Shown here: positions 22,042 through 61,828 of the stretch, piece by piece | Numbering within the stretch: the first letter of the stretch is position 1 | Layout: the number at the start of each line of letters is the position of its first letter | Origin: Wickerhamiella versatilis | Lineage: Eukaryota | Direction: 5' to 3' | Length of the DNA: 64,000 bases | NCBI GenBank assembly: GCA_030867685.1 | Contig: JAQOWU010000008.1 | Coordinates: 3,100,001 to 3,164,000 of the forward strand | Position numbers and translations under genes: made by a program | Notes under the pieces: generated by a model | Databases searched by the model: none | What the model was told of the DNA's origin: nothing | What the model saw: the letters and a program-made list of their open reading frames with translations, nothing else

Positions 22042-25000
22042 ATGGGGGATAGCAGCGACTGGATCGCGTTGCGAACTATCGCGCCTTCTCCCCCATCCTC
22101 AACACCTATTGAGGAGGAAAATCATGATGCAGACCATGAATCTCATGATCTTGCACATTTCAGAAATAACATTCTTGATGTTGCACAGAGTGAAGGACGA
22201 TGGCTAGGCCCTGATCAAGCTACACAGCGAGAACGCAAGCCTAGTGCTTCTCGAAGCGATCATCTCTCGATAGATGAAAATTTACGAAAAGAAGGTTCAC
22301 GAACTCCACAGCTTCGTGTGCGTGTACCGAGTCCACAGCCACGGCTAAGAGCACCGTCTCCTGTGCAACGTGTGGTTCGCCATTTAAATGTTGTCGCGGT
22401 GCCAGATCTACAGCGCCAACCTAGTGCTCGTAGTAGCTGGGTTAATGCCGGTGAAGACTCTCCAGATTCATCTAGTGCATTGTCAGACACACCACATAGT
22501 CCATACCGGCCGGACCCGGTACTTGGCAGAACAGAACCCCCGCGAAGCAGTGGTGACACCTTTGAATACCTTCCTCCTGGGTCACCTTTAGAAGATGATG
22601 GGGTATCTGACCTGGAAAACCAGCAGAATATGGCTCTTTCAGGTAGGACCTGCTTTTATTTTGGAGTCCAAAGCAACTTACGCCGAAGTCTGATTGTGCT
22701 CCTAACGTCAAAAGGCTTTTACTATGGTAATATTGTTGTTACTCTTTTTCATATGGTATTGCTCATACTTGAAACCAGGTCCATATATGAGCCAGTCGGA
22801 GTATATGACCCGGGTTTGGGATATCAAAAAAGTTGGGTTGATATTGTATATATGGTACTTTTCTCAGTATATACATTATGGCTTGTTGCCTATTTGGTGG
22901 CTTTTGGTGGGTTCACCGTGCAATATATTTTTGGGTGGCGTGACGCAGCCGACTACACCATCCAGTATTTCCGTAATATGTTCCTGAAAAAACGTGAGAC
23001 AAGTTTCGTAAATCAACACTGCTTTTTTCGTAAAAGCTGGAATCGCGTTGAAATAGCTGGAATTATCTGTTATTGGGCCTATTTGGCTTCAGGAAAGCAT
23101 GAAGTTCACTCTCTTACACGCTTTTTAGCAGGCCTCGCACATCTCAGAGTTCTGCGTCTGTTAGATTTCTTTGAAAATACGCGAGTCGTATTGCAAGCCT
23201 TGAAAACTGCGCTTCCTTTTTTGCAAAACGTTTTTCTTTTTATTGGTTTCTTTTTGATAGTTTTTGCAATAACTGGACTTCAGTCATTCAATACCTCGCT
23301 TCAAAGACATTGTGTTTGGTTCGACCCTCAGGATGGATCAAACTATACGACTTCACAGAAATGTGGCTCATGGTTTGACGGAAGCCCAGGATCAGTAAAG
23401 AAACGTCCTTATCTTGATTCTAATATGAGGGAGGGTCTCACGGCCAAAGGTTTTACTTGTCCATTAAATTCGAAATGTATTGCTGGCACGAATCCTAGTG
23501 GAAACACCGTGAGTTTCGATAATTTTTTCAATGCACTAGAGCAGGTATTTGTGATTATGTCGGTAAACACGTACTCAGACATAATGTATGATATTATGGA
23601 CTCCGAATACCTTGTCAGTTGCCTTTTCTTTATTTCAGGTGTTCTTGTTTTGGGAATATGGCTGATGAATTTACTTGTTGCCGTAATGCTTTCCTCTTTT
23701 GCTGCTGTACGTGAGTCTATGGGGCTAAGCAAAACACGAAGCTTAGAAAAAAAAGATAATGAATGGATTTACAAAAGGAACATCATTGGGAAAGTGTACT
23801 TGTGGATCCATCCAGCGATTGCTATCTTGCCACTAGTGGACATCATCCTTCAGGCACGCATGGATTATATGAAACTTGTTCAATGGGAAATAGCTTTGGC
23901 AGTAGTCTTTTCGTGCGAGATAGTCGCAAGATTTGGCATATTTCTTCCATTCTGGCGCCACTTTTTATCAGAGTCCTGGTTTGATTGCATATTGGCACTT
24001 GCAAATATAGCTATCTTACCTTGCTATAAGACTCAAGTGTATCCTTGGCTGACGGTAATACAACTTTCTCGTGCTTATCGTTGTGTCGCGCTGTTTAAAT
24101 TTGCTCGACAATTGTGGGATCAGCTTTTTGGTGATTACATGGTGATTATCAACTTAACAGTCTTCTATTTCTCGTTAACATTTCTGACCTCTCTTATTCT
24201 GGTTAAGATTCTCAGGGGATTTTTTCCGCCCAGTGACGATGGAAATCTTGACCGTAAATCATTTTTCAGCCTGAGTGCATCATTTTTGAATATGTATCAA
24301 ATTTCTTCTACGGAAAATTGGACAGATATACTCTATAATGCAACATCAGAGGCTGGAGGTCTGGTTGAAGCAATTTGCCTGGGTATACTTTTCTGCCTCT
24401 GGCTGGCATTTTCCAATTTCGTAGTGTTGAACCTGTTTATAGCTACTATGATGGAATCAATGAGCAGCTCTGTTGCTATCAAACGCCGAGAGCAGATAAA
24501 GCAGTTCACTCGAGAACTCATGAGTTATCTTCATGCTCCATTAACTCCTAGAGGCGTCCGAGTTGTTGTTGAGCGCATGCGCGGTAAAAAAAGTGCAGAA
24601 CCGCAAATTGGTGAGAACAACGAAGTCATTCAGTCCATTGAAAGACTGTGTATGGCCGAATTCCTGGAAAAGAATGTGTTAGATGAACCGAAACCACCAC
24701 GGCGTATGACCACTTTGGCTGAACATCCATTGGGTCGGCACATTCTCAAATGGTGCAGAATCCTCTTTAGTAGGCTTCGTCCTCGCACAAAGGGGTTCCG
24801 TCAAAATATCATTGGTAACGAAGGAATGGCCTTTATCGAGAGTATGTATGGTGAAGCGCCTATAGATGATGGTGGTTCTTCGCTATTCATCTTCAGCTCT
24901 AATCACCCCATTCGTCGTTTTTGCCAGCATATATTCCCACCATCCTCTGGAATCAGATCAACCAGAATCACCCCCGGAAAGCGTACACATTCTGTTGTTA

Positions 25001-27303
25001 CTGCTCTTCTGCTCTTATTCACTGTGGCAATGGTTGTCTGTACGTGCGTCTCTACCCCATACTATTCCATGATGCAAAATGTTCACGCCGGTCAATGGCA
25101 GTGGTATCGCATAGTTAATTTAATGTTTGCGGTGATATTCTTGATCGAATTCATCATCAAGGTTGTAGCTGATGGGTTTCACTTCACACCAAATGCTTAT
25201 ACACTCAGTCCATGGAATTTGGTTGATTTAGTTGCACTTATATCAATGTGGATAACTTTTATTGACGATACCGTGGGCGGGCCGGTATCTCGTTATTCTC
25301 GTGGATTTATGGCTTTTCGTGCTCTCAGACTAATTTCTTTTACAAGCCGAACTGATTCTGTATTCCGAGCAATGATAACCATGGACTGGAAGAATGTTGT
25401 TGCAGCAGTACTTATTTCGCTTTCTCTTGTTATTCCATATTCGATTTGGGGCATGAATCTATTCGCAGATAGGCTTGAGTACTGTAACGATTCAGACATT
25501 CGCAACCTTAATGACTGCATGTATGAATATCGTGCGAGTCCTTACAATTGGGATATATGGGCGCCAAGGGCTACTGTTGAGCCATATTTCAATTACAATT
25601 CATTCGGAAGTGCCCTGTTAATTCAGTTTGGCGTACTTTCACTTGAAGGTTGGGTTGATGTTATGGATGCAGTCACATCGATTGTGGGTATAGAAAATAA
25701 CGAGATTAGCTTCACCTCGCCTGGAAATGCGGCATACCCCGTTCTTTACTGTTTCCTTGGTACTGTCCTAATCATGACTATGTTCATCGCTATTGTGATT
25801 CGCAATTATACTGTGGCCTCCGGCACTGCATTTCTTACAAAAGATCAAATTGCTTGGAGAGATATCAAACGAACACTCAGGATATACAAGCCTATGCCAA
25901 AACCACCTGTCTATCCAGAAGGGTCTGCACGCAGATTTCTACTCAATGGATTTGGCTCATACGGTTGTCTTTCTATTCTCGAGATATTGCTATTAGCGAT
26001 TCTCACAATTTTGTTCGCGGTTTACTTTGGTTCTCTTTCACCAGCGACGGAGAAATCGTTTTTCATCGCTTTACTAGTATGTGGTTTAGCTCTCACGGCA
26101 CTGTGTGTGATTCGCTTTCTTGTGATGAAACGACGTCTATTTATTTCAACATGGTGGAATGTTTTTGGCCTACTTGTATTGCTACTTTTTGATTGCAGTA
26201 CGATTAGCATACTTTCATATGGTAACAAGCCAAAACCATCGGCACAAAATTTGAGTCGAGTTTCATGTATACTTACTTTGACGCTTTGGATTCCTCGGGT
26301 AACGAGTTTAAAACGCCTTATCTCTGTGCTTGGTGCTTGTATTCAGGATATAGTGGCGCTTCTTGCAACATGGTTGACATTTTTCCTTGCTTATGCCATT
26401 GCATTCAACCAAAGTTTCGGACTGACGAAATTAGGTGAAAACTCGACTCAAAACCAAAATTTCCGAACAGTCCCAAAAGCACTCATCTTGCTGTTCAGGA
26501 TGAGTACTGGTGAAGGTTGGAACGAAGTCATGGAAGATTTCACGATATCATCCCCTTATTGCTATGAAGTTGTAAAAGCTGGTAACTCGACTTCCAGCGA
26601 GTGCGGCAATGCAGCACTAGCTTATTTTTTGTTTATTACGTGGAATGTCTTGTCAATGTACATTTTTGCTAATCTCCTGATCTCACTTATTGTTGAAAGT
26701 TTCTGGTATCTTTTTCAGCATACACCGCTGTCAGGTCAAAGAGAAGTAGACATTAAAAACTTTTTGAAGCTTTGGCAAGAATATGATCCCCATGCGACAG
26801 GTTATATTCCATTGCGTAGCTTTCCAGACTTTCTCAGTCGATGCACGGGTTACTTTGAAATGGGTATTTATAGCATAGACCCGCATTACAGCGTTTTTAA
26901 AATTGTGAACGCTCTGCCCATTCCCCGACTTGGTGACCCATATAATCTTGATGGACAGGCTCTAATCCGATACTTGGATAATCTACCTGTTGAAGAGATT
27001 CGCAAGCGACGCGAATTGTATGAACTTTTCTGCATGCATGTCAAAGTAACTGCTGATAGCCAGGGTGTTTCATTCAGAAGACTTTTGAAGCTCTTTCCTA
27101 TGTATAAGGATCTTGATCCCTCTAAGGTTTTGACATTACCGGAATTTTTAAGGCTCAAGATCGACCTATACAATGCCCGAATGCACTTAGCTACCGACTT
27201 GCTCATTCGAAAGTGGCGTGCTAGACATGGGGCTGGCGAAAGCTCTGGCTCTACATTGGGATCTCCCGAGACAGAAAGCGATAAGTCCATGACCTTGATT
27301 TAA
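22042..27303 (+). CDS. CCH1: Four-domain calcium channel alpha subunit
   Basis: Four TM repeats; pore loops MSVNTYSD, SSTENWTD, LSLEGWVD and STGEGWNE give the N/E/E/E filter typical of fungal Cch1. Confidence 0.95.
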   Translation: MGDSSDWIALRTIAPSPPSSTPIEEENHDADHESHDLAHFRNNILDVAQSEGRWLGPDQATQRERKPSASRSDHLSIDENLRKEGSRTPQLRVRVPSPQPRLRAPSPVQRVVRHLNVVAVPDLQRQPSARSSWVNAGEDSPDSSSALSDTPHSPYRPDPVLGRTEPPRSSGDTFEYLPPGSPLEDDGVSDLENQQNMALSGRTCFYFGVQSNLRRSLIVLLTSKGFYYGNIVVTLFHMVLLILETRSIYEPVGVYDPGLGYQKSWVDIVYMVLFSVYTLWLVAYLVAFGGFTVQYIFGWRDAADYTIQYFRNMFLKKRETSFVNQHCFFRKSWNRVEIAGIICYWAYLASGKHEVHSLTRFLAGLAHLRVLRLLDFFENTRVVLQALKTALPFLQNVFLFIGFFLIVFAITGLQSFNTSLQRHCVWFDPQDGSNYTTSQKCGSWFDGSPGSVKKRPYLDSNMREGLTAKGFTCPLNSKCIAGTNPSGNTVSFDNFFNALEQVFVIMSVNTYSDIMYDIMDSEYLVSCLFFISGVLVLGIWLMNLLVAVMLSSFAAVRESMGLSKTRSLEKKDNEWIYKRNIIGKVYLWIHPAIAILPLVDIILQARMDYMKLVQWEIALAVVFSCEIVARFGIFLPFWRHFLSESWFDCILALANIAILPCYKTQVYPWLTVIQLSRAYRCVALFKFARQLWDQLFGDYMVIINLTVFYFSLTFLTSLILVKILRGFFPPSDDGNLDRKSFFSLSASFLNMYQISSTENWTDILYNATSEAGGLVEAICLGILFCLWLAFSNFVVLNLFIATMMESMSSSVAIKRREQIKQFTRELMSYLHAPLTPRGVRVVVERMRGKKSAEPQIGENNEVIQSIERLCMAEFLEKNVLDEPKPPRRMTTLAEHPLGRHILKWCRILFSRLRPRTKGFRQNIIGNEGMAFIESMYGEAPIDDGGSSLFIFSSNHPIRRFCQHIFPPSSGIRSTRITPGKRTHSVVTALLLLFTVAMVVCTCVSTPYYSMMQNVHAGQWQWYRIVNLMFAVIFLIEFIIKVVADGFHFTPNAYTLSPWNLVDLVALISMWITFIDDTVGGPVSRYSRGFMAFRALRLISFTSRTDSVFRAMITMDWKNVVAAVLISLSLVIPYSIWGMNLFADRLEYCNDSDIRNLNDCMYEYRASPYNWDIWAPRATVEPYFNYNSFGSALLIQFGVLSLEGWVDVMDAVTSIVGIENNEISFTSPGNAAYPVLYCFLGTVLIMTMFIAIVIRNYTVASGTAFLTKDQIAWRDIKRTLRIYKPMPKPPVYPEGSARRFLLNGFGSYGCLSILEILLLAILTILFAVYFGSLSPATEKSFFIALLVCGLALTALCVIRFLVMKRRLFISTWWNVFGLLVLLLFDCSTISILSYGNKPKPSAQNLSRVSCILTLTLWIPRVTSLKRLISVLGACIQDIVALLATWLTFFLAYAIAFNQSFGLTKLGENSTQNQNFRTVPKALILLFRMSTGEGWNEVMEDFTISSPYCYEVVKAGNSTSSECGNAALAYFLFITWNVLSMYIFANLLISLIVESFWYLFQHTPLSGQREVDIKNFLKLWQEYDPHATGYIPLRSFPDFLSRCTGYFEMGIYSIDPHYSVFKIVNALPIPRLGDPYNLDGQALIRYLDNLPVEEIRKRRELYELFCMHVKVTADSQGVSFRRLLKLFPMYKDLDPSKVLTLPEFLRLKIDLYNARMHLATDLLIRKWRARHGAGESSGSTLGSPETESDKSMTLI

Positions 27304-47782: not shown

Positions 47783-49801
47783 TCAGTCTCCAATATCAGC
47801 ATCATTTGTACTCACAATGCAATTACAGGCATGTATAAATTCATCAACCTTATTCCCATTGCGAGAGCTATCAATACTGACAAACTCCTCAATGTCAATT
47901 AGATTTGTTTCATCAACCTCAGGAAACAAAATGCGTACTTTAGCACCTCCATCATTATTATCGTACCTGGGATTTATTCGGCAAGCACGAACGTCCTGGA
48001 ATGTACCAATTAGCTGTGATTCCGAAAAGGTGCTCCACACATGAAGCGGTTCATTCGCAATAGCAATCAAGCGCAACCTGCGAGCATGGTGGGAATATAA
48101 CCCTCTGACGCAAGATCGCGGTTTGTTGGTTCGTACATCCACAACATCATTAGTTCGCAATGACAGCATTCCAGGTTCCAGATAAGTGCGAGACAATACA
48201 ACCACAAGAGCATCCCATAAGTAGGCTTCTTTCAAATATGTAAGGTCGCGATGTAGGATTGACGACAAATCGTCGGCCCTCAGGTTTCGCTGCATGTCTC
48301 TAAACCCAGATTCGGTGTGTTCATGAGCGACCCGCGCATTAGCGGCAAGCGGACCCAGAGATGACCTTCCTGCCGCCATCATGCTAAATACATGGTCAAT
48401 TCGCCGCATTCGTGCCACAGGAAGACGGATGTATTCAGCCACCTCTGCGTCGATGGGCGCAGGGGATGGTGCAAGCCGCGCAAGGACATTATCGGTTCCA
48501 CCTATCGTCAAAACCTGTCGGTCCGTTCTGCCCGCACATCTCATCAACTCCCCAAGTTCTACATAATCGGCACGGCCATAAAATAGTGCCGTACTTAGTT
48601 CCCGCACTGCCAGCTGCAGAGTGGAGTCATCGTCCACTGATGGTTCTTGATGTTTATACATTGCAGCTGCAGACGCTGCTGCAAACTGGGAAAATGCGCG
48701 TCTATAATATCTCCGATGGGGGTGGGTCAAGTTTGAAAGCTTCTCAATAAGTAATTGGAATGTTCTCGGCAAAGATCCCCTTCGCCGTTTTGTCACAGTG
48801 TTGTCTGCCTTATCAAGCGCCTTGATATAAACATCCTCCTCTATCAGTAAATCCTTGGCAAGCTGAGCAATTTCTCTCCATTTGAGAATCCGACTCGGCA
48901 TTTCCATAAATTGTCCAGGGAATTGATGCTGGCGGCAGATAACACACCCACTCCGATGCGGCCCTTTAGTGATGTGCCATATATCTGATAAAGTCTCTAG
49001 TACTACACGGGACTGAGCAATAGTACTCTTGCTGCTTGGTGTGGCCACGTTTTGAAGTGGCGGTGGAAAGGTCCCCTGTCTCTGTTCTACAATGTTAGGC
49101 TCGAGCACCGTTAATACACCATCTTTATCCGGCCCAGGCGGTATCTGTTGAGTATATATACCACCACAATAGAAGCCACGAAGATATGGAGGAATAGTGT
49201 CCTGGAGCTGCAGGCGCTGGGCTGCTGCTGCTGGCCACTCCGGGCCACGGATCGTCGAAGGGACAGATTTATACACCTCCAAATGTGAAGTTTTAAAATT
49301 GAAGTATGCTTCGCGAAAACTATTATCCTTCGCAAATGCAAGTTCTAGACAAGGATTTCCCTGGATGCTGATTATAGTCAGATTTTTTAATTCAACAAGA
49401 AACCAAGGCCATGTCGCTATGTTGTTGTACTCAACGTACAACTCTTTGAGTTCCTTAAGCTCAAGCAGCCAAGGTTCAATAACAACCAGGCCACACTGAC
49501 CCGCACGCAATCGCTCGAGCCGATTCAAGTGGCAAAGCCATTTTGGCAGCCGACCAGTCCGCCACATCTGCTCTCTTGCCTCTGGCATAGAGGCCAAGTC
49601 AAGTTCCTTAACACTGGATAAATCCAGTCCTTCATCGTTCTCCCTGGGGCGGCGATATTTGCTCTCAGCTTCGGAGTCAGAGTTTGAATCGGGCTCACTG
49701 TCATGCTGATCACTGGAATCATCGCTCTCCACTGGTAAATTTAGACGGAACGCATTGGCTGCCGGAGTCCGGCGGTAAAGTCGTCGTGACAACAACCCCA
49801 T
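47783..49801 (-). CDS. Uncharacterised leucine-rich-repeat protein with a possible degenerate DH(RhoGEF)-PH region
   Basis: About three LRRs ending in IQGNP; KDLLIEEDVYIKAL and YIRLPVARMRRI resemble DH conserved regions. Confidence 0.6.
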   Translation of the reverse strand: MGLLSRRLYRRTPAANAFRLNLPVESDDSSDQHDSEPDSNSDSEAESKYRRPRENDEGLDLSSVKELDLASMPEAREQMWRTGRLPKWLCHLNRLERLRAGQCGLVVIEPWLLELKELKELYVEYNNIATWPWFLVELKNLTIISIQGNPCLELAFAKDNSFREAYFNFKTSHLEVYKSVPSTIRGPEWPAAAAQRLQLQDTIPPYLRGFYCGGIYTQQIPPGPDKDGVLTVLEPNIVEQRQGTFPPPLQNVATPSSKSTIAQSRVVLETLSDIWHITKGPHRSGCVICRQHQFPGQFMEMPSRILKWREIAQLAKDLLIEEDVYIKALDKADNTVTKRRRGSLPRTFQLLIEKLSNLTHPHRRYYRRAFSQFAAASAAAMYKHQEPSVDDDSTLQLAVRELSTALFYGRADYVELGELMRCAGRTDRQVLTIGGTDNVLARLAPSPAPIDAEVAEYIRLPVARMRRIDHVFSMMAAGRSSLGPLAANARVAHEHTESGFRDMQRNLRADDLSSILHRDLTYLKEAYLWDALVVVLSRTYLEPGMLSLRTNDVVDVRTNKPRSCVRGLYSHHARRLRLIAIANEPLHVWSTFSESQLIGTFQDVRACRINPRYDNNDGGAKVRILFPEVDETNLIDIEEFVSIDSSRNGNKVDEFIHACNCIVSTNDADIGD

Positions 49802-51959: not shown

Positions 51960-52431
51960 TTTTTATGAGCTTTGAAATTTGTTAGGTTAGGGTTGAGGAT
52001 CGTTAGCAGCACTTCAGAGTTGAGAGAACAAAAGTCACGAGAGCAACCTGCCGTGGGGTGGGGAGTTGGACTGTTTTGAAAGGAACACGAGCCATTGAAG
52101 TATCCATTACATATTCCAGACCATTCCTATCCTATCCTATCCTGCTCTATGCTATCCTGTGGGTCTAACTTACCCCCGGACCCACATCTTGAACGGCCAC
52201 GAATGTCCCGATTTCGGGCGTCTTTGCATGGAGAACAATATTTTTTTACTAAAAACTTAGTTTACAAAATATTTTTTACATGAATATTTTCAGAAAACCA
52301 GAAAGCTAACGTCATTACTGGTCAGTCTACTGTTCTGACAAATCAGTGGAGTCATTAACAACCCGTGTAGGTTGGTTTAGTCAAGAAGTCTCGTAGATCC
52401 TCCTCACTTCGGTCCCGAAACTCTCAGAATC

Positions 52432-55400
52432 ATGGAGGAAGAAGTATCGTTTACGGCGTTGACGACGCTGGATACAATGCGTCGTGATACCTCCATTTTG
52501 GGGGCTAACAACAAGATTCTTGTAGCAAATCGCAGTGAAATTGCTATTCGGGTATTCCGATCCGCACATGAACTTTCCATGATCACTGTAGGTATCTACG
52601 CACATGAGGATATTTTGAGCATGCATAGGCTCAAAGCTGATGAAGCATATGTCATTGGCGCTGCAGGACAGTATACACCTGTCGCAGCCTACCTCCAGGT
52701 TGATGAGATTATCAACATAGCCAAGGAGCATGGGGTAAATATGATTCACCCGGGCTATGGCTTTTTAAGTGAGAACTCCGAGTTTGCTCGCAAAATCGCT
52801 GAGGCTGGAATGATCTGGATTGGACCTCCCCCTGAGGTTATTGATTCGGTCGGGGACAAGGTAAGCGCAAGGCATCTGGCTAAGGCTTGCAATGTGCCCA
52901 CCGTGCCAGGAACGGAGGATGCTATCGAGTCTGTTGAACAAGCAGAAGCTTTTGTCAAGGAACACGGCTATCCTGTCATTATGAAGGCCGCCTATGGTGG
53001 TGGTGGTCGAGGAATGCGTGTCATTCGTGAAGGCGAGTCAATTTCGGATGCATTCACCCGAGCATCGTCGGAGGCCAAGACGGCTTTTGGAAATGGCACA
53101 ATTTTCATAGAACGGTTTTTGGACAGGCCGAAGCACATTGAAGTTCAACTCTTGGCCGACAATTACGGGAACGTCATTCATCTGTATGAGCGTGATTGCT
53201 CTGTACAGAGACGTTACCAGAAGGTCGTTGAAATGGCCCCATCGATCTCCTTGCCTCCGAAGACCCGTGATGCTATTTTGACCGACGCAGTTAAGCTGGC
53301 GAAACACGCTGGCTATCGCAATGCAGGCACTGCCGAGTTCTTAGTTGACACACAGGGTCGCCATTACTTTATTGAAATCAACCCGCGTATTCAGGTAGAG
53401 CACACGGTAACTGAGGAAATCACAGGAATTGACATCGTGTCATCTCAAATCCAGATTGCTGCAGGTGCCTCACTCGCTGACCTGGGACTCACTCAAGATG
53501 CTATCATGTATCGTGGATGTGCAATTCAGTGTCGTATCACCACTGAGGACCCAACACAAGGCTTCAAGCCCGATACTGGCAGGATTGAGGTTTACCGATC
53601 AGCGGGTGGCAATGGTGTGCGTCTAGATGGTGGTAATGGATTCTCGGGGTCCGTCATCAGTCCCTACTATGACTCGCTTCTTGTTAAGTGCACGTGTCTC
53701 GGATCCAGTTTTGAGGTTGCTCGAAGAAAGATGCTCCGTGCATTGATCGAGTTTAGAATTCGAGGTGTGAAGACAAATATACCATTCTTGATTTCCCTTC
53801 TCACGGCCGATATCTTCATGAAAGGAGACTGCTGGACTACCTTTATTGACGACACTCCATCTCTGTTCAACCTTCTGCGTTTCCGTAATCGTGCTCATAA
53901 GATTTTGACGTATCTCTCAGAAGTTCTCGTCAATGGGCCAACGATTGCAGGTATTCGTGGCGAGCCGCGAGTTAAAGACGTCTCAGTGCCTGTCGTTCCA
54001 GAATTAGGACCCAAGGTTCAACCGTCAACTGTGGGCTGGCGCAATATTCTAAAGAGCGGTGGTCCAGCTGCATTTGCCAAGGCAGTACGTGAGCACGATG
54101 GTTCTCTTATTATGGACACAACTTGGCGTGATGCCCATCAATCCTTACTCGCGACCCGTGTTCGGACAAAGGATCTTCTTGCCATTGCTCCACTGACATC
54201 GCATGCACTTCAAGGAGCCTTTGCCCTTGAGTGCTGGGGTGGTGCCACCTTCGATGTGGCCATGCGTTTCCTCTACGAAGACCCATGGGACCGCTTGAGG
54301 AAAATGAGGGAGCTTGTGCCGAATATTCCCTTTTCTATGTTGCTGCGTGGTGCAAATGGTGTTGCATACTCTTCCCTACCTGATAATGCAATTGACCATT
54401 TCTGTAAACGAGCCTATGAGAATGGTGTGGATGTTTTCCGCGTTTTCGATGCCCTAAATGATTTGGAACAGCTTGAGGTTGGTGTTAAGGCAGCCCGAAA
54501 GGCCGGTGGTGTTGTAGAGGCGACAGTTTGTTATTCCGGTGATATGCTTACCCCGGGCAAGAAATACAACCTAGACTACTACCTGGAACTCGTACGTGAG
54601 ATCGTAAAACTTGGCACCCATATCTTGGGCATTAAAGATATGGCTGGTACCCTTCGCCCCCCTGCCGCGACTAAGCTTATTGGTGCCATTCGTCGTGAGT
54701 TCCCTGACCTCCCAATTCATGTACACACGCATGATTCTGCTGGTACCGGTGTAGCTTCCATGGTTGCCTGCATCAGGGCCGGTGCTGATGCCGTTGACGC
54801 TGCGTCCAATTCCATGAGCGGAATGACATCCCAGCCATCTATCAGCGCTATTATTGCGTCTTTGGATGGTGAGATAGATCTCAAGTTGGATCCTGCGCTG
54901 GTGCGAGCACTTGATCAGTATTGGGCGCAAATTCGTCTTCTGTACTCGCCATTTGACGCAGACCTCAAGGGGCCGGACCCAGAGGTCTATGTCCATGAGA
55001 TTCCTGGTGGGCAACTCACTAATTTGCTCTTCCAGGCGCAACAAGTTGGGCTTGGATCTCAGTGGGCTGAGACAAAGAGGAAGTACGTTGAGGCCAACCA
55101 GCTTCTTGGTGATATCGTTAAAGTAACACCAACCTCTAAGGTGGTTGGTGATCTTGCCCAGTTTATGGTTTCCAATGATCTGAGTCCTGAAGATGTCGAG
55201 CGACGCGCTGATGAGCTCAGCTTCCCTGACTCTGTGCTAGACTTCTTCCAGGGAATGATGGGCACACCATATGGCGGATTCCCGGAGCCGCTAAGAACCA
55301 ATATCCTGCGTGGCGCGAAACGGAAGCCATTCGACAAACGTCCCGGTGCGTTGCTTCCTCCCATTGACATTGATGGTGTACGCAAGGAGCTCACGTTGAA

Positions 55401-56013
55401 GTATAAGGATAACATTACGGAGGACGATGTGGCTTCATATATCATGTATCCCAAGGTTTACGACCAATACCGTGAAACGCGCGAGAAATTTGGAGATCTT
55501 TCCGTGGTTCCCACAATTCTTTTGCTGCAGCCAGCAGAAATCAACCATGCTTATGAGGTAGAAATCTCTCCAGGTAAGGTCTTAGTAGTGAAATGTCTCG
55601 CTGTTTCCGCCCTCTCGCAGGTCACTGGTACCCGAGACGTCTTCTTCGAGCTCAATGGAGAAATCCGAAAGGTTACTGTTGAAGACCGTAAGAGCGTTGT
55701 TGAGACGATCACTCGCCCTAAGGCAGACCAATCGAACCCAAGTGAGGTCGGAGCGCCAATGGCTGGTGCCGTTGTAGAGATCCGAATTCACGAGGGACAA
55801 GAGGTCATGAAGGGTGATCCATTGGTTGTTATGTCCGCAATGAAGATGGAGATGGTGGTGTCAGCTCCTGTTCATGGATTTGTCCGCAATGTGGAGGTTA
55901 AATCTGGAGACTCTGTTGATTCTGGAGACTTGATTTGCAAAGTTGTTCATGAATCTGAGCCAGAACCTGTGCGTAATCCCATTGACAACGTGGAGAAGCT
56001 GCATGATGAGTAG
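52432..56013 (+). CDS. PYC1: Pyruvate carboxylase
   Basis: ANRSEIAIR, HPGYGFLSE, RDCSVQRR, DTTWRDAHQSL, IKDMAG, HVHTHD and biotinyl site AMKME. Confidence 0.97.
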   Translation: MEEEVSFTALTTLDTMRRDTSILGANNKILVANRSEIAIRVFRSAHELSMITVGIYAHEDILSMHRLKADEAYVIGAAGQYTPVAAYLQVDEIINIAKEHGVNMIHPGYGFLSENSEFARKIAEAGMIWIGPPPEVIDSVGDKVSARHLAKACNVPTVPGTEDAIESVEQAEAFVKEHGYPVIMKAAYGGGGRGMRVIREGESISDAFTRASSEAKTAFGNGTIFIERFLDRPKHIEVQLLADNYGNVIHLYERDCSVQRRYQKVVEMAPSISLPPKTRDAILTDAVKLAKHAGYRNAGTAEFLVDTQGRHYFIEINPRIQVEHTVTEEITGIDIVSSQIQIAAGASLADLGLTQDAIMYRGCAIQCRITTEDPTQGFKPDTGRIEVYRSAGGNGVRLDGGNGFSGSVISPYYDSLLVKCTCLGSSFEVARRKMLRALIEFRIRGVKTNIPFLISLLTADIFMKGDCWTTFIDDTPSLFNLLRFRNRAHKILTYLSEVLVNGPTIAGIRGEPRVKDVSVPVVPELGPKVQPSTVGWRNILKSGGPAAFAKAVREHDGSLIMDTTWRDAHQSLLATRVRTKDLLAIAPLTSHALQGAFALECWGGATFDVAMRFLYEDPWDRLRKMRELVPNIPFSMLLRGANGVAYSSLPDNAIDHFCKRAYENGVDVFRVFDALNDLEQLEVGVKAARKAGGVVEATVCYSGDMLTPGKKYNLDYYLELVREIVKLGTHILGIKDMAGTLRPPAATKLIGAIRREFPDLPIHVHTHDSAGTGVASMVACIRAGADAVDAASNSMSGMTSQPSISAIIASLDGEIDLKLDPALVRALDQYWAQIRLLYSPFDADLKGPDPEVYVHEIPGGQLTNLLFQAQQVGLGSQWAETKRKYVEANQLLGDIVKVTPTSKVVGDLAQFMVSNDLSPEDVERRADELSFPDSVLDFFQGMMGTPYGGFPEPLRTNILRGAKRKPFDKRPGALLPPIDIDGVRKELTLKYKDNITEDDVASYIMYPKVYDQYRETREKFGDLSVVPTILLLQPAEINHAYEVEISPGKVLVVKCLAVSALSQVTGTRDVFFELNGEIRKVTVEDRKSVVETITRPKADQSNPSEVGAPMAGAVVEIRIHEGQEVMKGDPLVVMSAMKMEMVVSAPVHGFVRNVEVKSGDSVDSGDLICKVVHESEPEPVRNPIDNVEKLHDE

Positions 56014-56398
56014 TCAAATAGTTAAGCAACCTAGTCTTCAATTAATGTTTTTTTGTTCGCAAGGAAGTGGTGATATTAGATTGAAAACCGCCGAATGAAC
56101 CAAATTCTTATCCATTGTGTTTGAGAAATTGGGTCCCTAAAAGCAGACCCTAATATTGAAATTACGATGCTAATTTGGACAACGTAATTTGAACAAGTCT
56201 ATCATGATTTATAAAAACACAGATATTTACAGCATTATTTAGGTACTGCTATTTAGAAAAATTGAATGCTCGTTAACCCTACCTTTTAAGAAAATGATAA
56301 TTTAGAACAAACACAAGTGATACTGTAAGGGGGTATTAAAGCGAAAAAAAATATTGAAATTTAGGGTATACATCCATCCATCAACTCATTCTAGCTAC

Positions 56399-57760
56399 TC
56401 AAGCTGCCACCTCATCCATAGCCTCATCTTCATATACTACTTCACCTTCCACATCATCCACTTGATCATCAACCGTTGCATTCTGATACTGATCATATTC
56501 TTGAACAAGGTCCAGGAGGTCCGAATATGCCTCAGTAAACTCTGATTCGTCCATTCCCTCACCGGTGTACCAGTGCAAGAAGGCTCTCCGACGGTACATC
56601 TGATAGAATTGCTCATTGGTTCGATTGAAAAGTTCCTGTACAGCTGTTGTATTAGCAACAAATGTGGCTGATGTATCTAAGCCCTTTGGTGCGACATTGC
56701 AGACTGAGGTCTGGAAATTATTCGGAATCCACTCAACAAACAGTGACTTATTACGCTCGTAAGCTGCCTGATTGCAGTCCTCCACCTCTTTAGTCGACAC
56801 ACGTCCACGGTATATGGTCGAGATTGTGAGGTAACGGCCATTTTGTGGGTTACACGCAGCCATCACATTGCTAGGGTTAAAAAGCTGTTGCGTGAGTTCA
56901 GGTACGCTCAGATTGTGGAATGCGCGAGTATTTGCGGCAAATAGAGGAGCAAACGCCGTTGTAAAGAAATGCAGACGGGTAAATGGCACGAGATTCACCG
57001 CCAACTTTCTAAGATCGCCATTTAATTGTCCTGGATAGCGTAGACAAGTAGTGACTCCGCTCATGAGAAGCGCGATTAAGCGATTCAGATCCTTGTGTGT
57101 AGGATGCTCAATCTTAAGGGTTCGCGTACATATATTGTACAATGCCTCGTTGTCTAGACAGTAGGTCGCATCGCTGGCCTCGACCAGCTGATGTAGTGCC
57201 AATACAGCATTGTACGGCTCAGTCACGGTCTCACTCACCCGTGGGCTAGGAAGAACAGAGTACGTAGAAATCATACGGTCAGAATACTCATCCCGGATTC
57301 TACTCATGAGCAAGGTGCCCATACCACTACCTGTACCACCACCAAGGGAGTGAGCAATTTGGAAACCCTGGAGTGAATCAGTTTGCTCGACCTCACGACG
57401 CACAGCGTCTAGCACAGGTTCCATGAGTTCTGCACCCTCAGTATAGTATCCCTTGGCCCAGTTGTTACCAGCACCACTCTCACCCGAAATGAGATTGTCC
57501 GGCCTAAATATGTTGCCAAGAGGCCCAGCTCGAATAGCATCAAGCGTGGCAGGCTCCAGATCAACAGCTACAGCACGAGGGACGTGCTTATTACCACTGG
57601 CTTCATTAAAAAACACGTCAATGCGGTCGCGGTTGGCATGGCTTGACGGATCCAGATGACCCTCTGCATCGAGCCCATGTTCCTGTGTAATAGTTTCCCA
57701 GAATGCAGAATATACCTGGTTACCTGCCTGGCCGCACTGCACAGACACGATTTCACGCAT
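56399..57760 (-). CDS. TUB2: Beta-tubulin, strongly divergent
   Basis: MREI start at 57760, [32 protein letters not shown] and an acidic tail; collinear with canonical beta-tubulin numbering. Confidence 0.95.
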
Positions 57761-57877
57761 CGCCTTTTGTTTGTGTGGTGTGGGTGAAACTAACAACAAA
57801 TATTCGATTACAAATACGCGACAAGAAAACCCTAAGCCTATGAGAGTTACGAATAAAATAAACGGATAGAGCATAGA

Positions 57878-58705
57878 TCATTCCGGTATACTTGAAAGCT
57901 TGCTCAATCTTCGTGCAGGATTTCTATAGAGTGTTTTGGGTGGCCGAACGTGGACTGGCATCTGCCAGGGGCGTATTGTTCGACGTTTCGCAGGCAGATA
58001 GCTCTGCCTTTGGTGTGACTTCCTCGATGCATTGGTTATCGTGCTTTTGAAGGGAGCTCCCGACGTACGAGTGTCCTTCTTCTGCACAATGCTAGGTCTA
58101 GGTGCTATTCGTGGCTTCAACCCTTTTCCCTGTGGTGGAGCTCTTGCAGAACTAGCAGCAAGGGCCGTAGCCCTGACATTCGCATTAGCAGGAGTAGCAG
58201 TAGTGACAGCTATGGGCCCAGCTGGTTTTTTCGTGAAGGAGGGGGCATCCTTAACCAACCTTCGTTTTCTCTGCAACTGTTGTGGGTGCAGCAACGATGG
58301 ATTTTTATTTGGTGCTGGCACTGAATTGCTGTTTCCTGATGTGGGATGCTGGTTGTTTTGGTCATTAGATTGCTTTTTTTCCCGTTTAGTGTCAGGGGCA
58401 GCTAAATCACAAAAAACCTCATTCCTGACACTATTGGAAGCCTCAATATTTTGCTGCGTGATACGTTCTCTTTGCATGCGCACGGACTCGATACTTTGCC
58501 CTTGCCATCTGGGGTCAACAAGCTTCGCGCGGACCCGGGCGGTTTGCCCAATTAATTTTGACCATTGCGTAAACGTGTGAGATGCGCGCTTACTGGAATG
58601 CCTGGCTTTATGTGAGCAATTGAGCGCCATATCGAGAATTCCAACCGCTTTCTCAAAGAAATCAATGAGTCTATCGGCACTTTCAATCTCGTCCTGGGCC
58701 CACAT
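57878..58705 (-). CDS. Uncharacterised protein with a helical N-terminus and a basic Pro/Lys/Arg-rich tail; start could be 58795
   Basis: Open frame of 275-305 aa filling an otherwise gene-sized gap; no recognisable family. Confidence 0.6.
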   Translation of the reverse strand: MWAQDEIESADRLIDFFEKAVGILDMALNCSHKARHSSKRASHTFTQWSKLIGQTARVRAKLVDPRWQGQSIESVRMQRERITQQNIEASNSVRNEVFCDLAAPDTKREKKQSNDQNNQHPTSGNSNSVPAPNKNPSLLHPQQLQRKRRLVKDAPSFTKKPAGPIAVTTATPANANVRATALAASSARAPPQGKGLKPRIAPRPSIVQKKDTRTSGAPFKSTITNASRKSHQRQSYLPAKRRTIRPWQMPVHVRPPKTLYRNPARRLSKLSSIPE

Positions 58706-58987
58706 AGAGCCAATTATATAAGCGTACACACTGGAGTGTCTTTCTAGGCCAGATATTATCATGTAGCACAATGGGAAGCACCTACTATTAACCATGCTAA
58801 TTCTATATAGTGGATACCGAGTTGGAATGCTAATTCACGCAGTGTTTAAAACAGACACAAGAGCTATGACTTTGGACAGAAAATCCCTCATGTAGTAAGG
58901 TGAGTGATTAGGCTGAAAAAGTATCTTGACGGCGTATCGTCCTCAATCAGCAATAATATTTTTTTTGTTTGCTCTCAAGTTGCCGTT

Positions 58988-59015
58988 ACGCGCTCTAACG
59001 CGTCCCGCGACGCGT
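58988..59015. promoter_or_regulatory. Tandem MCB (MluI cell-cycle box) elements
   Basis: ACGCGT at 58998-59003 and 59010-59015 (6-bp spacer), plus ACGCG at 58988 and an internal CGCG, in a divergent intergenic region. Confidence 0.65.
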
Positions 59016-59350
59016 CACCTGGATTAGGGTGATCTGCGGCCTAACCCCTGGCCGAGCCACGAAAATAAAGCGATGGAGCAGGTAAACAAGGTAAAAACCC
59101 TCAATTAAAACTGTCAGGAAGTAGCATTCAAAACATAAAACCAGTATATATACTCTAAAAGGTACAAAAAAACTGTCTCGCACTGATTTCCTAAAAAAGG
59201 AGGAAAAAATTGGGCTACCTGTAAGGGTTAGGTCACAGCCCACAGTCTTTCCACCAAGGGGGATCGAACTTACCAACAGACGCCATTACCGGATCGCGTT
59301 CTCATTGACTGGGGAACAAAACAGAAGGTAATTGAAGCGTTTATTCCTGC

Positions 59351-61828
59351 ATGGTTGAATATGACTTTAGCCGTGCTGCGGCTCTAGAAACTGGTGAACC
59401 ATGTGCAGTTTCTCCTTTTGGTAAAGCCGACATTGTCGACCGCGATGTCTTACGTTCAGAATTGCTTAGAGGATCCGGGACAAGAATTCATTCAGGAAGC
59501 ACGGAGCTGTTGCTACTTTCAGGTAACAGGCTTGCTCTCTGCACGGATTCAGGCGAACTTATCTGCCCGGTGTTTCGAGGACCCGAGGTACCAGCTGATG
59601 TGAAGGTGAGCCAGTCATCGATTGTGGTCGAGGGAATTGGAAGCAAGTGGTCTTTTAGTGTTGATGGCATGCCGTCGGTGATTAGGCACTGGGCACCCAT
59701 TTTTAAAGGCATTTTTGGCACCAATGCGTCCCAGGAGGCTCCAAATAAATACCTGGACGGCCTGGGGATCTCTCTCAGTAGCGAAAAGCTGATTCCCTGC
59801 ATACCTACTTCCGCCGCTCTCAATACAGCCGGAAGTCGTACGAGTGTGACGACAGGATTCGAATCGGAAATCAGCCAGTTGCTCAGTGCTAACCCGGCCC
59901 TTGAACTGATGGCTCCGTCGATGCCTTGGTCTGATTCACCGGGTGACGTTACGCCCTCGCCAAATTCCCTTTATATTTCAGGAGAGGAAGAAACCCCCAA
60001 GAACACTAAGATGGAGCAGTACTCTTCAGAGAAGAGCACACCTACCCAAAAGAAGCTGGAAAGAGCGCCAGAGCGGCCGCCACCAATAATGCCACCGCCA
60101 GTCCCAGAACCTACTGAAGTCCCCGAAGTGAATGTGGGGTACGAACGTTTGGAGAAGCCCAAGCTACCGGCTGCCGCCACAGAAAATGCACCATCCACAC
60201 CAACATCTCTTAATTCGGTGGATTCGCAAAGTAAGTTACCGCTCAAGGTACGTAAGTCTTTTCAAACAATGATAAAACGTTTGCGCAAGCCGAAGTCGCA
60301 AAGGAATCTCACTACCAGGACAAGCCAGAGCGAGCCAGAACATCCAAAACCTGCCGAAAACAGTCAGAACCAATACAGACCTCCCAGTCCAAATTCCATT
60401 GAGAGTTCTAAGGAAACAGACGAAGACTCAATAAAGACTCCCATTGAAAAACACCAAAGAACAGAGTCAGCGGGCGGTGAGGTAGAAAAGCCTGAAGTAA
60501 AGGAGGATGTTTCCGCCGCGAAGACCGAGAATTCTAACGATAGTAAGGCACCAGAGCAATTGCCAAGCATACATCTCGACCGCTGGGATGATATCAGCCT
60601 TGATAACGAAGATGAAGGGAGCTCGGTGAAGCAAGAGACCAAGAATCAGCCCACCGAGGAGCCTTATAATTTGAGAAATTCGACCCGGTTTGGCTCAAAT
60701 GATTCAGGATTCGTCACTGCGTCTGAATCGGACGCGGGGTCTGCTCAAGCGGTGTCATTCGAATCTCATAATAGGACTGTCGAAATAGGAGCATCCAAGT
60801 TCTCCTCCCAGAGCTCGGGACTCTCATCCTTGTCTTTCCGATCCCACAAGTCTCAGAAATCGCACGCATCTAAGGCCTCTTCGACGCTGGAAACGTTACC
60901 GGAGGCTGATGAAGTGCCTGACTTGATTGCGGATTCCAGTGTGGACTCGCAATTTTCAGATTTTCTTGCCAGCGTGCGATCTAAGGCCAGATTAATCGAG
61001 CAGCAAAAGGAGAATGAAGAGATGGAAAAGCGCAGAGCGGCTCGAATTCAGGAACGTGAAAAGCAGACAGCAGCAGCGGTAATTGCCTATGAGAATGCGA
61101 GGGCGGTTTCCTCTGTTCCAAATTTGGAGCGTCCCATGTCAATGGCTGCGCCATCGTCTGTACCTCCTCCTCGTCCCGTTGCTCCTCCAATGATGTCTGC
61201 AAAACCGATAAAGCCAAAAACAACCGTATACCCAACCCTGGATCCGAAGAAACTTGATGCCCTTCCTCCAGCTGGCCGACAGAGACTTTCGGAAGTTTCT
61301 ATGAATGCGAGCACACCAGCCCTTAATTACCAACCAAATAAGAATACATTATTTGCTGGAGCAATGTGGGTTTCCAGGTGGACATTCGATCGGTGGACTC
61401 CGCTCTCCCAACTAGAGCTGGACACCCAGGTCGCTGTTACCGACCGCAATTCATCGCGTATCTTTGTGATGGGACCCCGAGGAACCAGTCCTACAGTATT
61501 CAGGTTCGGTAGACGCAGTAGTGTGCGTCGTGTGGGGGCTCATGATATCGAGGTTCGCATAATAGATGGCGAGACATACATGTTCAGATCCCGAGATCCG
61601 GAACGTGCTCGCCAATTCTTTGCCTCTTTGGCAACCCTACAGGGAGATGCTCGCGATTCAAACCAGACTTCAAAGTTCCGACATTCAAATAGAGAAAGTG
61701 TGGTTTCATCAACTTCCAGCAGTAGTAGCATTGATAATTTCGAAACGTGGCGACGAAGGGTGGCACCACCGCCCCTGGCAAAACCGAGATTTCTTCGGAC
61801 TCCTCCATGTACTATAATTGAGGAGTGA
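59351..61828 (+). CDS. Uncharacterised 825-aa protein, mostly low complexity, with a probable C-terminal PH-like domain
   Basis: Long ORF; Ser/Pro/Glu-rich centre with PxxP motifs; C-terminal beta-rich block ending YMFRSRDPERARQFFASL. Confidence 0.75.
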   Translation: MVEYDFSRAAALETGEPCAVSPFGKADIVDRDVLRSELLRGSGTRIHSGSTELLLLSGNRLALCTDSGELICPVFRGPEVPADVKVSQSSIVVEGIGSKWSFSVDGMPSVIRHWAPIFKGIFGTNASQEAPNKYLDGLGISLSSEKLIPCIPTSAALNTAGSRTSVTTGFESEISQLLSANPALELMAPSMPWSDSPGDVTPSPNSLYISGEEETPKNTKMEQYSSEKSTPTQKKLERAPERPPPIMPPPVPEPTEVPEVNVGYERLEKPKLPAAATENAPSTPTSLNSVDSQSKLPLKVRKSFQTMIKRLRKPKSQRNLTTRTSQSEPEHPKPAENSQNQYRPPSPNSIESSKETDEDSIKTPIEKHQRTESAGGEVEKPEVKEDVSAAKTENSNDSKAPEQLPSIHLDRWDDISLDNEDEGSSVKQETKNQPTEEPYNLRNSTRFGSNDSGFVTASESDAGSAQAVSFESHNRTVEIGASKFSSQSSGLSSLSFRSHKSQKSHASKASSTLETLPEADEVPDLIADSSVDSQFSDFLASVRSKARLIEQQKENEEMEKRRAARIQEREKQTAAAVIAYENARAVSSVPNLERPMSMAAPSSVPPPRPVAPPMMSAKPIKPKTTVYPTLDPKKLDALPPAGRQRLSEVSMNASTPALNYQPNKNTLFAGAMWVSRWTFDRWTPLSQLELDTQVAVTDRNSSRIFVMGPRGTSPTVFRFGRRSSVRRVGAHDIEVRIIDGETYMFRSRDPERARQFFASLATLQGDARDSNQTSKFRHSNRESVVSSTSSSSSIDNFETWRRRVAPPPLAKPRFLRTPPCTIIEE

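Follow-up and report, generated by a model that had tools for sequence, protein, structure and literature searches.

The 64,000-nucleotide stretch of Wickerhamiella versatilis DNA considered here (GenBank assembly GCA_030867685.1, contig JAQOWU010000008.1, positions 3,100,001 to 3,164,000; 'the window' hereafter, numbered from its first letter) carries, on its minus strand, a beta-tubulin gene whose product combines tyrosine 167, alanine 198 and tyrosine 200, residues best known from single-site benzimidazole-resistance alleles. Judged by comparison with its relatives, the gene is a divergent beta2-tubulin paralogue, of the Geotrichum TBB2 type, and not a canonical beta1 gene with acquired resistance alleles. 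Our reading, to which we assign a probability of roughly 0.8, is that it represents the Wickerhamiella/Starmerella-clade orthologue of beta2, that its benzimidazole pocket was remodelled long ago and step by step, and that insensitivity to these drugs is likely a by-product of the specialization of the paralogue.

Identity of the gene and residue numbering

The open reading frame (ORF) runs from an ATG at 57760 to a stop codon at 56399-56401, and its translation begins MREIV. Both tubulin domains are recognized by Pfam in the 453-residue product: PF00091 (Tubulin; E = 2.7e-62, 210.9 bits against a cut-off of 33) and PF03953 (Tubulin_C; E = 5.5e-36, 124 bits against a cut-off of 26.6). All of the best 60 matches found by phmmer among PDB chains are named beta-tubulin, and a look-up in the ESM Atlas returned 'Tubulin beta chain' clusters only. 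In the top PDB match, Drosophila beta1 (6tis_B, E = 1.4e-198), residues 1-439 pair with residues 1-439, free of gaps up to approximately residue 431. Because the protein aligns without gaps to the solved beta-tubulins, canonical beta-tubulin numbering applies; a preliminary description of this DNA, made from the letters alone, had counted residues from MREI on the claim that the protein is collinear with canonical beta-tubulin, and over residues 1-431 there is indeed no offset.

The motif GGGTGSG, which we take to be the tubulin nucleotide-binding signature, is intact, and the C-terminal tail is acidic. With the Pfam domains, the collinearity, the MREI start, this motif and the acidic tail all present, the gene encodes a beta-tubulin. 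Its conservation and expression suggest that the protein presumably dimerizes with alpha-tubulin and polymerizes into microtubules.

Residues of the benzimidazole pocket

The benzimidazole site has been modelled as comprising H6, Y50, Q134, A165 or S165, F167, E198, F200 and M257 (PMC8145593). Table 1 gives the states of these positions in the window protein, codon by codon, and their distribution among beta2-type proteins; Q134, and likewise L240, R241 and L250, are in their canonical states. Among 21 canonical fungal beta1 proteins, H6, Y50, F167, E198 and F200 are each invariant (21/21); A165 occurs in 20/21 (the other, from Blastobotrys, has S165) and M257 in 15/21, the remainder having leucine. 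L257 and S165 are not special, both being seen also in canonical yeast beta1. The preliminary description had given the Y167, A198 and Y200 codons with their coordinates, and S6, F50, S165 and L257 besides, and every one of these agrees with the codon read-out. As to the residues it took to be normal for fungi, H6 and Y50 hold throughout, whereas A165 and M257 do not.

Table 1. Features of the beta-tubulin gene and its surroundings in the window. The fourth column gives residue states among 40 beta2-type rows; these include the window itself, its identical long-ORF twin and several co-members of 90% clusters, and are not independent of one another. CDS, coding sequence; UTR, untranslated region; aa, amino acids; nt, nucleotides.
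Feature	Positions	Strand	State in beta2-type rows	Basis
Beta2-type beta-tubulin CDS, intronless, 453 aa, stop codon included	56399..57760	-		ORF, translation, Pfam, PDB alignment, RNA reads
Residues 140-146, GGGTGSG, presumed nucleotide-binding signature, intact	57323..57343	-		translation and PDB alignment
Codon 6, TCT = Ser (canonical His)	57743..57745	-	S in 30/32 with a residue; the 2 F are rows with mis-predicted N-termini	codon read-out
Codon 50, TTT = Phe (canonical Tyr)	57611..57613	-	F in 39/39 with a residue	codon read-out
Position 134			Q in 40/40	
Codon 165, TCT = Ser (fungal beta1 Ala, animal Asn)	57266..57268	-	S in 33/40	codon read-out
Codon 167, TAC = Tyr (fungal Phe)	57260..57262	-	Y in 38/40	codon read-out
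Codon 198, GCG = Ala (canonical Glu)	57167..57169	-	A in 32/40, E in 7, S in 1	codon read-out
Codon 200, TAC = Tyr (fungal Phe)	57161..57163	-	Y in 28/40, F in 11, H in 1	codon read-out
Codon 257, CTC = Leu (Met in most canonical beta-tubulins)	56990..56992	-	L in 33/40	codon read-out
Codon 352, Ser (canonical Ala), clade-defining beta2 change	56705..56707	-		position computed from CDS start
Tubulin mRNA 5' ends, 5' UTR ~21-25 nt	57781..57785	-		tailed reads of poly-A run X24
Upstream in-frame ATG opening a 491-aa ORF, beyond the mapped mRNA 5' ends	57872..57874	-		ORF list and RNA depth
Pyruvate carboxylase (PYC), intronless, 1193 aa, convergent (tail-to-tail) with tubulin	52432..56013	+		ORF and homology

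Relatives and phylogeny of the paralogue

The window protein is ~63-65% identical to canonical fungal beta-tubulins, from which it differs at 151-161 of 430 positions. Its closest match is a 96%-identical relative; further proteins follow at 74-81%, and the clusters of matches at 79-81% include the 'Tubulin beta-2 chain' of W. sorbophila and proteins of Starmerella bombicola and Starmerella bacillaris. Listed by name, the nearest is the 'Tubulin beta-2 chain' of Geotrichum candidum, TBB2_GEOCN, at 74%, and the next named matches come from Trichomonascus, Magnusiomyces, Dipodascopsis, Nadsonia, Lipomyces, Kockiozyma, Tortispora and Limtongia.

In a maximum-likelihood tree of 45 rows (LG+C20; no basidiomycete beta2 included), all 24 beta2-type rows, the window's among them, form one clade with 100/100 support, on a stem of 0.55 changes per site. 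This clade falls within Ascomycota, where it forms an unresolved trichotomy with the beta1 of Saccharomycotina and a group of Pezizomycotina plus Saitoella, and its branches are longer than those of beta1. Within it, Lipomycetales branch first, then Tortispora, then Nadsonia, and then Trichomonascus, Geotrichum and Magnusiomyces beside Wickerhamiella and Starmerella. The last two make up a group of nine rows (100/100) with an extra stem of 0.26, inside which the window and its 96% relative form a pair, joined weakly (82/85) by W. sorbophila. A quick tree concurs in placing the window in the beta2 clade. The preliminary description had reported its residues simply for beta-tubulin; the residues stand, but the gene is a divergent paralogue, by its identity values and by this clade, and that it had missed.

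The sequence in which lineages branch within the beta2 clade matches the accepted phylogeny of the budding-yeast orders, an argument for vertical descent. The phylogeny dates the paralogue to the base of the budding yeasts at the latest, and in Lipomycetales, Trigonopsidales and Dipodascales it appears to have been inherited vertically. Other work leaves room for an earlier or a different origin. Zhao et al. (2014; PMC5381371) describe an extra, long-branched beta-tubulin in Yarrowia and Galactomyces that clusters with basidiomycete beta2, and allow horizontal transfer for these copies. Beta2 may thus have originated before the ascomycetes and basidiomycetes split, or have come by transfer; the trees here are trees without basidiomycete beta2. 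The same paper cites Gold, Casale & Keen (1991) for two Geotrichum beta-tubulin genes.

Several of these yeasts hold both tubulins. A canonical beta1 (H6/Y50/F167/E198/F200) stands beside beta2 in Nadsonia, Lipomyces arxii, Kockiozyma, Limtongia and Dipodascopsis uninucleata, and canonical beta1 was found in Blastobotrys and Yarrowia as well. Among the best 120 of 8000 matches to Nadsonia beta1, none is attributable to Wickerhamiella or Starmerella, and neither is any in a tree of unassigned beta1-type matches, results that are no evidence of absence. One could suppose that these yeasts have lost beta1 and run all of their microtubules on beta2, and that the concentration of founding changes there points to the buried pocket, rather than the surface, as what selection acted on when the paralogue arose, maybe as a ligand or regulatory site. 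The DNA run of a cultured organism close to the window (organism A, discussed later) totals ~9.4 Mb of contigs, a small genome. We regard this supposition as speculative, and its chances as low. A scan of JGI metagenomes with the window protein gave 79 loci, with best identities of 58-69%; all are generic beta-tubulins, and none is a beta2-type locus.

Stepwise remodelling of the pocket

S165, Y167, A198, Y200 and L257 occur together in 27 of the 40 beta2-type rows. Holders of this five-residue set include W. sorbophila, S. bombicola, S. bacillaris, Geotrichum, Trichomonascus and Magnusiomyces, and the 96%-identical relative of the window has the same pocket residues. Placed on the tree, the residues have unequal ranges. 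S6, F50 and Y167 span all of the beta2 lineages, the exceptions being F167 in Tortispora and in one further row. L257 is present from Tortispora onward, A198 from Nadsonia onward and S165 in most of Dipodascales, and Y200 is confined to the crown. The beta2 of Lipomycetales retains E198 (S in Dipodascopsis tothii), F200 and M257.

This distribution places H6S, Y50F, F167Y and A352S on the beta2 stem and M257L after the divergence of Lipomycetales; E198A and A165S followed where Dipodascales begin, and F200Y in the crown that includes Geotrichum, Trichomonascus and Wickerhamiella/Starmerella. The comparison shows a pocket remodelled anciently and stepwise, its residues being a family trait. That the same residues occur across named genera, and accrue stepwise on the tree, excludes recent fungicide selection. 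The preliminary description had already preferred ancient remodelling to fungicide selection, and both the frequency of the five-residue set and its stepwise appearance on an order-like tree bear it out. It had proposed a check of related species, and in Wickerhamiella, Starmerella, Geotrichum, Trichomonascus and Magnusiomyces the set is shared. Its framing of the protein as an extraordinary stack of resistance alleles finds no support: named beta2 orthologues have these same residues as their normal state.

Sequence verification and transcript

The window stretch is present at full word share in nine public DNA runs (food, food-fermentation, sediment and unspecified metagenomes), and at a word share of 0.95 in the run of organism A. 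We compared the region 52000-59500 with two RNA runs (X21 and X24) and the DNA contigs of organism A, plus one further run. A single organism A contig (72,434 bases, run X12) spans this stretch and, over its 7,501 bases, departs from the window by 45 letters and 6 gaps; the strain from which the RNA came is near-identical to the window (99.4%). The strain-difference check covers 40 of the 45 X12 differences, those that were listed. None of the 40 falls between 56703 and 57980, and the sole one in the 1.36-kb tubulin CDS, 56702 G>T, is synonymous (V353); the adjacent 3.6-kb CDS of pyruvate carboxylase (PYC) has 19.

RNA depth over the pocket codons exceeds 100 per orientation in both X21 and X24, and the RNA reads and the independent DNA contig agree with the window at these codons; sequencing error, which the preliminary description had named as something raw reads might reveal, is thereby disposed of. 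Across the tubulin CDS, depth per orientation is ~105-170 in X24 and 200-255 in X21, and across PYC ~13-105 and 38-200, respectively. Tubulin is thus at ~2-4 times the depth of its neighbor, depth being a rough measure. Neither RNA run has splice joints inside the tubulin gene.

The 5' ends of the mRNA are marked by X24 reads that bear a non-genomic, adaptor-like tail, presumably the template-switch oligo: 39 at 57781, 8 at 57782 and 13 at 57785. Upstream of 57772, RNA depth drops from >100 to <20. A public gene call, P0290, starts at the upstream in-frame ATG and matches the long ORF over 491/491 residues. This ATG is probably not the start codon, and the 38-residue N-terminal extension that it would add is probably an annotation artefact.

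Two explanations that would strip the residues of meaning can be judged at this point. One is that they are recent, fungicide-selected mutations, or else errors of assembly or sequencing. To this we give next to no credence: the 96% relative, the named genera and more than half of the beta2-type rows (27/40) have the same residues, and RNA reads and the independent contig match the window at the pocket codons. Recent selection and sequencing error are both ruled out by the clade-wide residues, the tree and the reads. The other is that the gene is a decaying tubulin relic, its odd residues the outcome of relaxed constraint. A long stem, branches longer than those of beta1, and ~35% divergence from canonical beta-tubulin are what a relic might display; yet the ORF is intact and collinear, GGGTGSG is preserved, the gene is transcribed above its housekeeping neighbor PYC, the only listed strain difference in the CDS is synonymous, and three yeast orders have kept the paralogue, with 11 signature residues fixed in it. 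Intact reading frame, transcription, the synonymous-only difference and retention in three orders lead us to reject a pseudogene, and we consider the relic explanation very improbable.

Is the pocket a hotspot?

Whether the pocket has changed more than the remainder of the protein depends, in part, on how the question is put. Set against the Sordariales beta-tubulin P0098, the window protein differs at 7/8 pocket residues and at 151/430 positions overall (hypergeometric P = 0.0034). A second approach, more telling in that the result does not hang on the window protein by itself, uses clade-defining (type-II) sites, by which we mean sites that are at least 90% conserved in both the 21 beta1 and the 24 beta2 rows, yet different between them. 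Eleven of 430 positions qualify—H6S, C12A, Y50F, L65A, F167Y, V180T, T186V, I202L, V229I, M293L and A352S—and three of them (6, 50 and 167) are among the eight pocket residues (P = 6.5e-4). Position 352 is S in 23/24 beta2 rows and A in 21/21 beta1 rows; in the crystal structure of parbendazole bound to tubulin, A352 and M257 line a hydrophobic cavity (PMC9033620). I202, also clade-defining, is two residues away from 200. S6, A12, F50, Y167 and S352 of this beta2 signature are read in the window, which is itself one of the 24 defining rows, so that the test is partly circular. Three founding sites in the pocket, together with A352 in the cavity, mark the buried pocket as a hotspot of the changes on which the paralogue was founded.

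Other forms of the comparison are less favorable. Against yeast beta1 references, 5-6/8 pocket residues differ, and P rises to 0.034-0.11, since certain yeast beta1 proteins have L257 and S165 themselves. With a wider list of 11 resistance sites in place of the modelled pocket, 5-7/11 differ according to the reference (7/11 against two Pezizomycotina references), and P is 0.05-0.35. Enrichment of differences in the pocket of the window protein is real but modest, and hinges on the list of sites and on the reference.

A concentration of founding changes in the pocket, with later changes added to it in the same direction, is also what would be expected had natural antimitotics, as the preliminary description suggested, selected the pocket, by acting at the benzimidazole/colchicine-deep site; beta2 would then be a dedicated drug-proof tubulin. 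We think this improbable. No natural ligand turned up in this analysis, and the beta2 of Lipomycetales keeps E198, F200 and M257. Mutations of the buried pocket shift microtubule stability, too: Y50S, which abolishes thiabendazole binding, stabilizes microtubules (PMC8145593), and selection on dynamics therefore explains the same pattern. Functional specialization of the paralogue most likely drove the changes, and drug insensitivity would then be a by-product.

A change outside the pocket list deserves mention for its own sake. Residue 12, one of the 11 clade-defining positions, is alanine in all beta2-type proteins (GQAGNQ) and cysteine in beta-tubulins (GQCGNQ). In beta-tubulin this residue lies near the nucleotide base, and alanine is the state of alpha-tubulin.

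Expected consequences for drug binding

F167Y, E198A and F200Y are recurrent resistance alleles (bioRxiv 10.1101/2020.09.15.298828). The carbamate of parbendazole forms hydrogen bonds with N165 and E198 in the crystal structure (PMC9033620); E198A reduces carbendazim binding ~30-fold in vitro, and resistance has been transferred with it to Schizosaccharomyces pombe (PMC5940828). Y200 has been modelled as constricting the pocket, and insensitivity is predicted for those human isotypes that have Y200 or A198 (bioRxiv 10.1101/2020.09.15.298828). The pocket of the window protein would be one that has lost the Glu198 carboxylate, the hydrogen-bond partner of the drug carbamate, and has gained two tyrosine hydroxyls (Y167 and Y200) that may constrict it. 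Poor benzimidazole binding is to be expected from loss of this carboxylate together with both tyrosines and, on these residues and this literature, we think it probable that the protein should bind benomyl, carbendazim, thiabendazole and nocodazole-type drugs poorly. For the organism as a whole the matter is different. Related yeasts keep a canonical beta1 beside beta2, so insensitivity of the organism does not follow from this gene alone, and depends on whether a sensitive beta1 coexists.

Several considerations count against so direct a step from residues to drug response. Y167, A198 and Y200 are combined here in a background that differs from canonical beta-tubulin at ~35% of positions, which may alter their joint effect. 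Published alleles at other positions of the pocket are H6Y/L, Y50C/N/S and A165V, unlike S6, F50 and S165, and S165 and L257 also belong to canonical yeast beta1. Positions 198 and 200 have been argued to lie outside the carbendazim site and to act through conformation (PMC5940828), and occlusion of the pocket is, for this reason, a contested mechanism. Thiabendazole fails to control Geotrichum (PMC6723504), an insensitivity in the field that could have other causes.

Taken further, such considerations would have the protein, or the organism, still sensitive to benzimidazoles, through epistasis in the divergent background or because the drug poisons a canonical beta1 alongside it, which then sets the phenotype. 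In nematodes sensitivity is dominant, and loss of the sensitive isotype gives resistance; related yeasts, as noted, retain a beta1 of the sensitive type. We judge continued sensitivity rather unlikely, given that any one of E198A, F167Y and F200Y is enough for resistance in many fungi and nematodes (bioRxiv 10.1101/2020.09.15.298828; PMC5940828), and that Geotrichum, cited as having both genes (PMC5381371), escapes control by thiabendazole (PMC6723504).

Our literature search found no paper linking the yeast beta2 paralogue with benzimidazole residues, although the 1991 Geotrichum paper, which lay outside this search, may do so. Only Zhao et al. (PMC5381371) was found to treat the yeast paralogue, and its available text does not discuss these residues. 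The same search found nothing on benzimidazoles and Starmerella, Wickerhamiella or Yarrowia, and no phenotype recorded for the beta-tubulins of W. sorbophila, S. bombicola and S. bacillaris.

Genomic context

The window is ordinary yeast chromosomal DNA, compactly organized: its GC content is 0.41-0.51, and its housekeeping ORFs are long and intronless. Besides pyruvate carboxylase and tubulin, these ORFs specify cysteinyl-tRNA synthetase, Rax2, GET4, an MBOAT protein, ferrochelatase, a four-repeat ion channel, CorA, carbamoyl-phosphate synthase and an EH-domain protein. A tRNA scan of the 64-kb window found no tRNA genes. The ion channel (22042-27303, plus strand; 1753 aa) is a four-repeat Ion_trans protein resembling voltage-gated calcium channels of the Cch1 type, and lies where the window is richest in AT (GC 0.41-0.43). 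Two other long ORFs, of 672 aa (47783-49801, minus strand) and 825 aa (59351-61828, plus strand), match no Pfam family at E <= 1e-5; the second is transcribed, RNA depth climbing from 59279 and adaptor-tailed reads occurring at 59275.

PYC is the gene nearest the 3' end of tubulin, and its best named match is that of W. sorbophila, at 75%. The organism B-labelled run X17 contains a 5.4-kb contig over 52367-57756 that carries PYC and tubulin and differs from the window by 103 letters (~98% identity), so that the same arrangement is present in a close sister lineage. In five relatives, the beta2 and PYC matches have longest contigs of equal size: 44334 (P0028/P0175), 11237 (P0031/P0176), 124424 (Trichomonascus, P0047/P0179), 43832 (P0051/P0297) and 2369405 (W. 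sorbophila, P0291/P0172), one of the five being in the S. bacillaris cluster. Coinciding contig sizes of this kind hint that linkage of beta2 and PYC is old and conserved in relatives.

On the other side of the tubulin gene, 11 poly-A RNA reads have a forward adaptor-like tail just before 57888. They suggest a divergent promoter, from which a plus-strand transcript would begin ~105 bases away from the 5' ends of tubulin. In the region 57888-58776 lie a 305-aa minus-strand ORF (57878-58795), which matches no Pfam family, and a plus-strand ORF of 182 aa; 19 of the 40 listed strain differences fall there too, packed into <0.6 kb, a far greater density than in the tubulin CDS.

Comparison with known beta-tubulins

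The window gene is a further member of an already catalogued beta2 family, and named public orthologues have the same residues. Like the window protein, TBB2_GEOCN comprises 453 aa and belongs to the same clade, and the two are identical in state at positions 6, 50, 134, 165, 167, 198, 200, 257 and 352. They differ in that the Geotrichum protein represents another family-level lineage, the window lying with Wickerhamiella/Starmerella beyond the further stem of 0.26. Nearest among the named orthologues, at 80-81% identity, are those of W. sorbophila (PRT55286.1), S. bombicola (ALN12049.1) and S. bacillaris (GMM52654.1). All three share the full S6/F50/S165/Y167/A198/Y200/L257/S352 set of the window and fall in the same 100/100 group. 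W. sorbophila is a different species from that of the window, as the modest identity of its PYC attests.

Single-site F167Y, E198A and F200Y alleles have in common with the window the residues, the positions and the expected consequence for drug binding. They are, however, recent, and occur in an otherwise canonical, sensitive protein, whereas in the window all three occur together, are of ancient date and have become fixed across genera, in a paralogue that has diverged by ~35%. In animal isotypes, too, 'resistance' residues are wild type: insect beta1 has both Y167 and Y200, as does the window, and among human isotypes Y200 is found in most and A198 in TUBB1 (bioRxiv 10.1101/2020.09.15.298828). 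Resistance residues in natural isotypes are, then, not unprecedented. The animal isotypes examined have one or two such residues and, unlike the window, keep H6 and Y50; Y167, A198 and Y200 are combined in 0/3 animal and 0/21 fungal beta1 rows. Basidiomycete beta2, with which the Yarrowia and Galactomyces copies cluster, is a long-branched second beta-tubulin like yeast beta2 (PMC5381371).

Significance

Recognition of the gene as beta2 removes a false alarm: resistance-like residues are what an old paralogue normally has, and point neither to fungicide selection nor to an odd strain. It supplies, in addition, a ground in sequence for expecting tolerance of methyl benzimidazole carbamate (MBC) fungicides in Dipodascaceae and in Wickerhamiella/Starmerella yeasts, organisms of food fermentations, fruit and nectar, an expectation that fits the failure of thiabendazole against Geotrichum sour rot. 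If beta2 were the sole beta-tubulin of the Wickerhamiella/Starmerella yeasts, an entire clade of yeasts from food, nectar and fermentations would be constitutively benzimidazole-proof. And the natural series that beta2 proteins offer, from S6/F50/Y167 through the addition of L257, and then of A198 and S165, to that of Y200, could be used to dissect how the benzimidazole pocket tolerates multiple changes.

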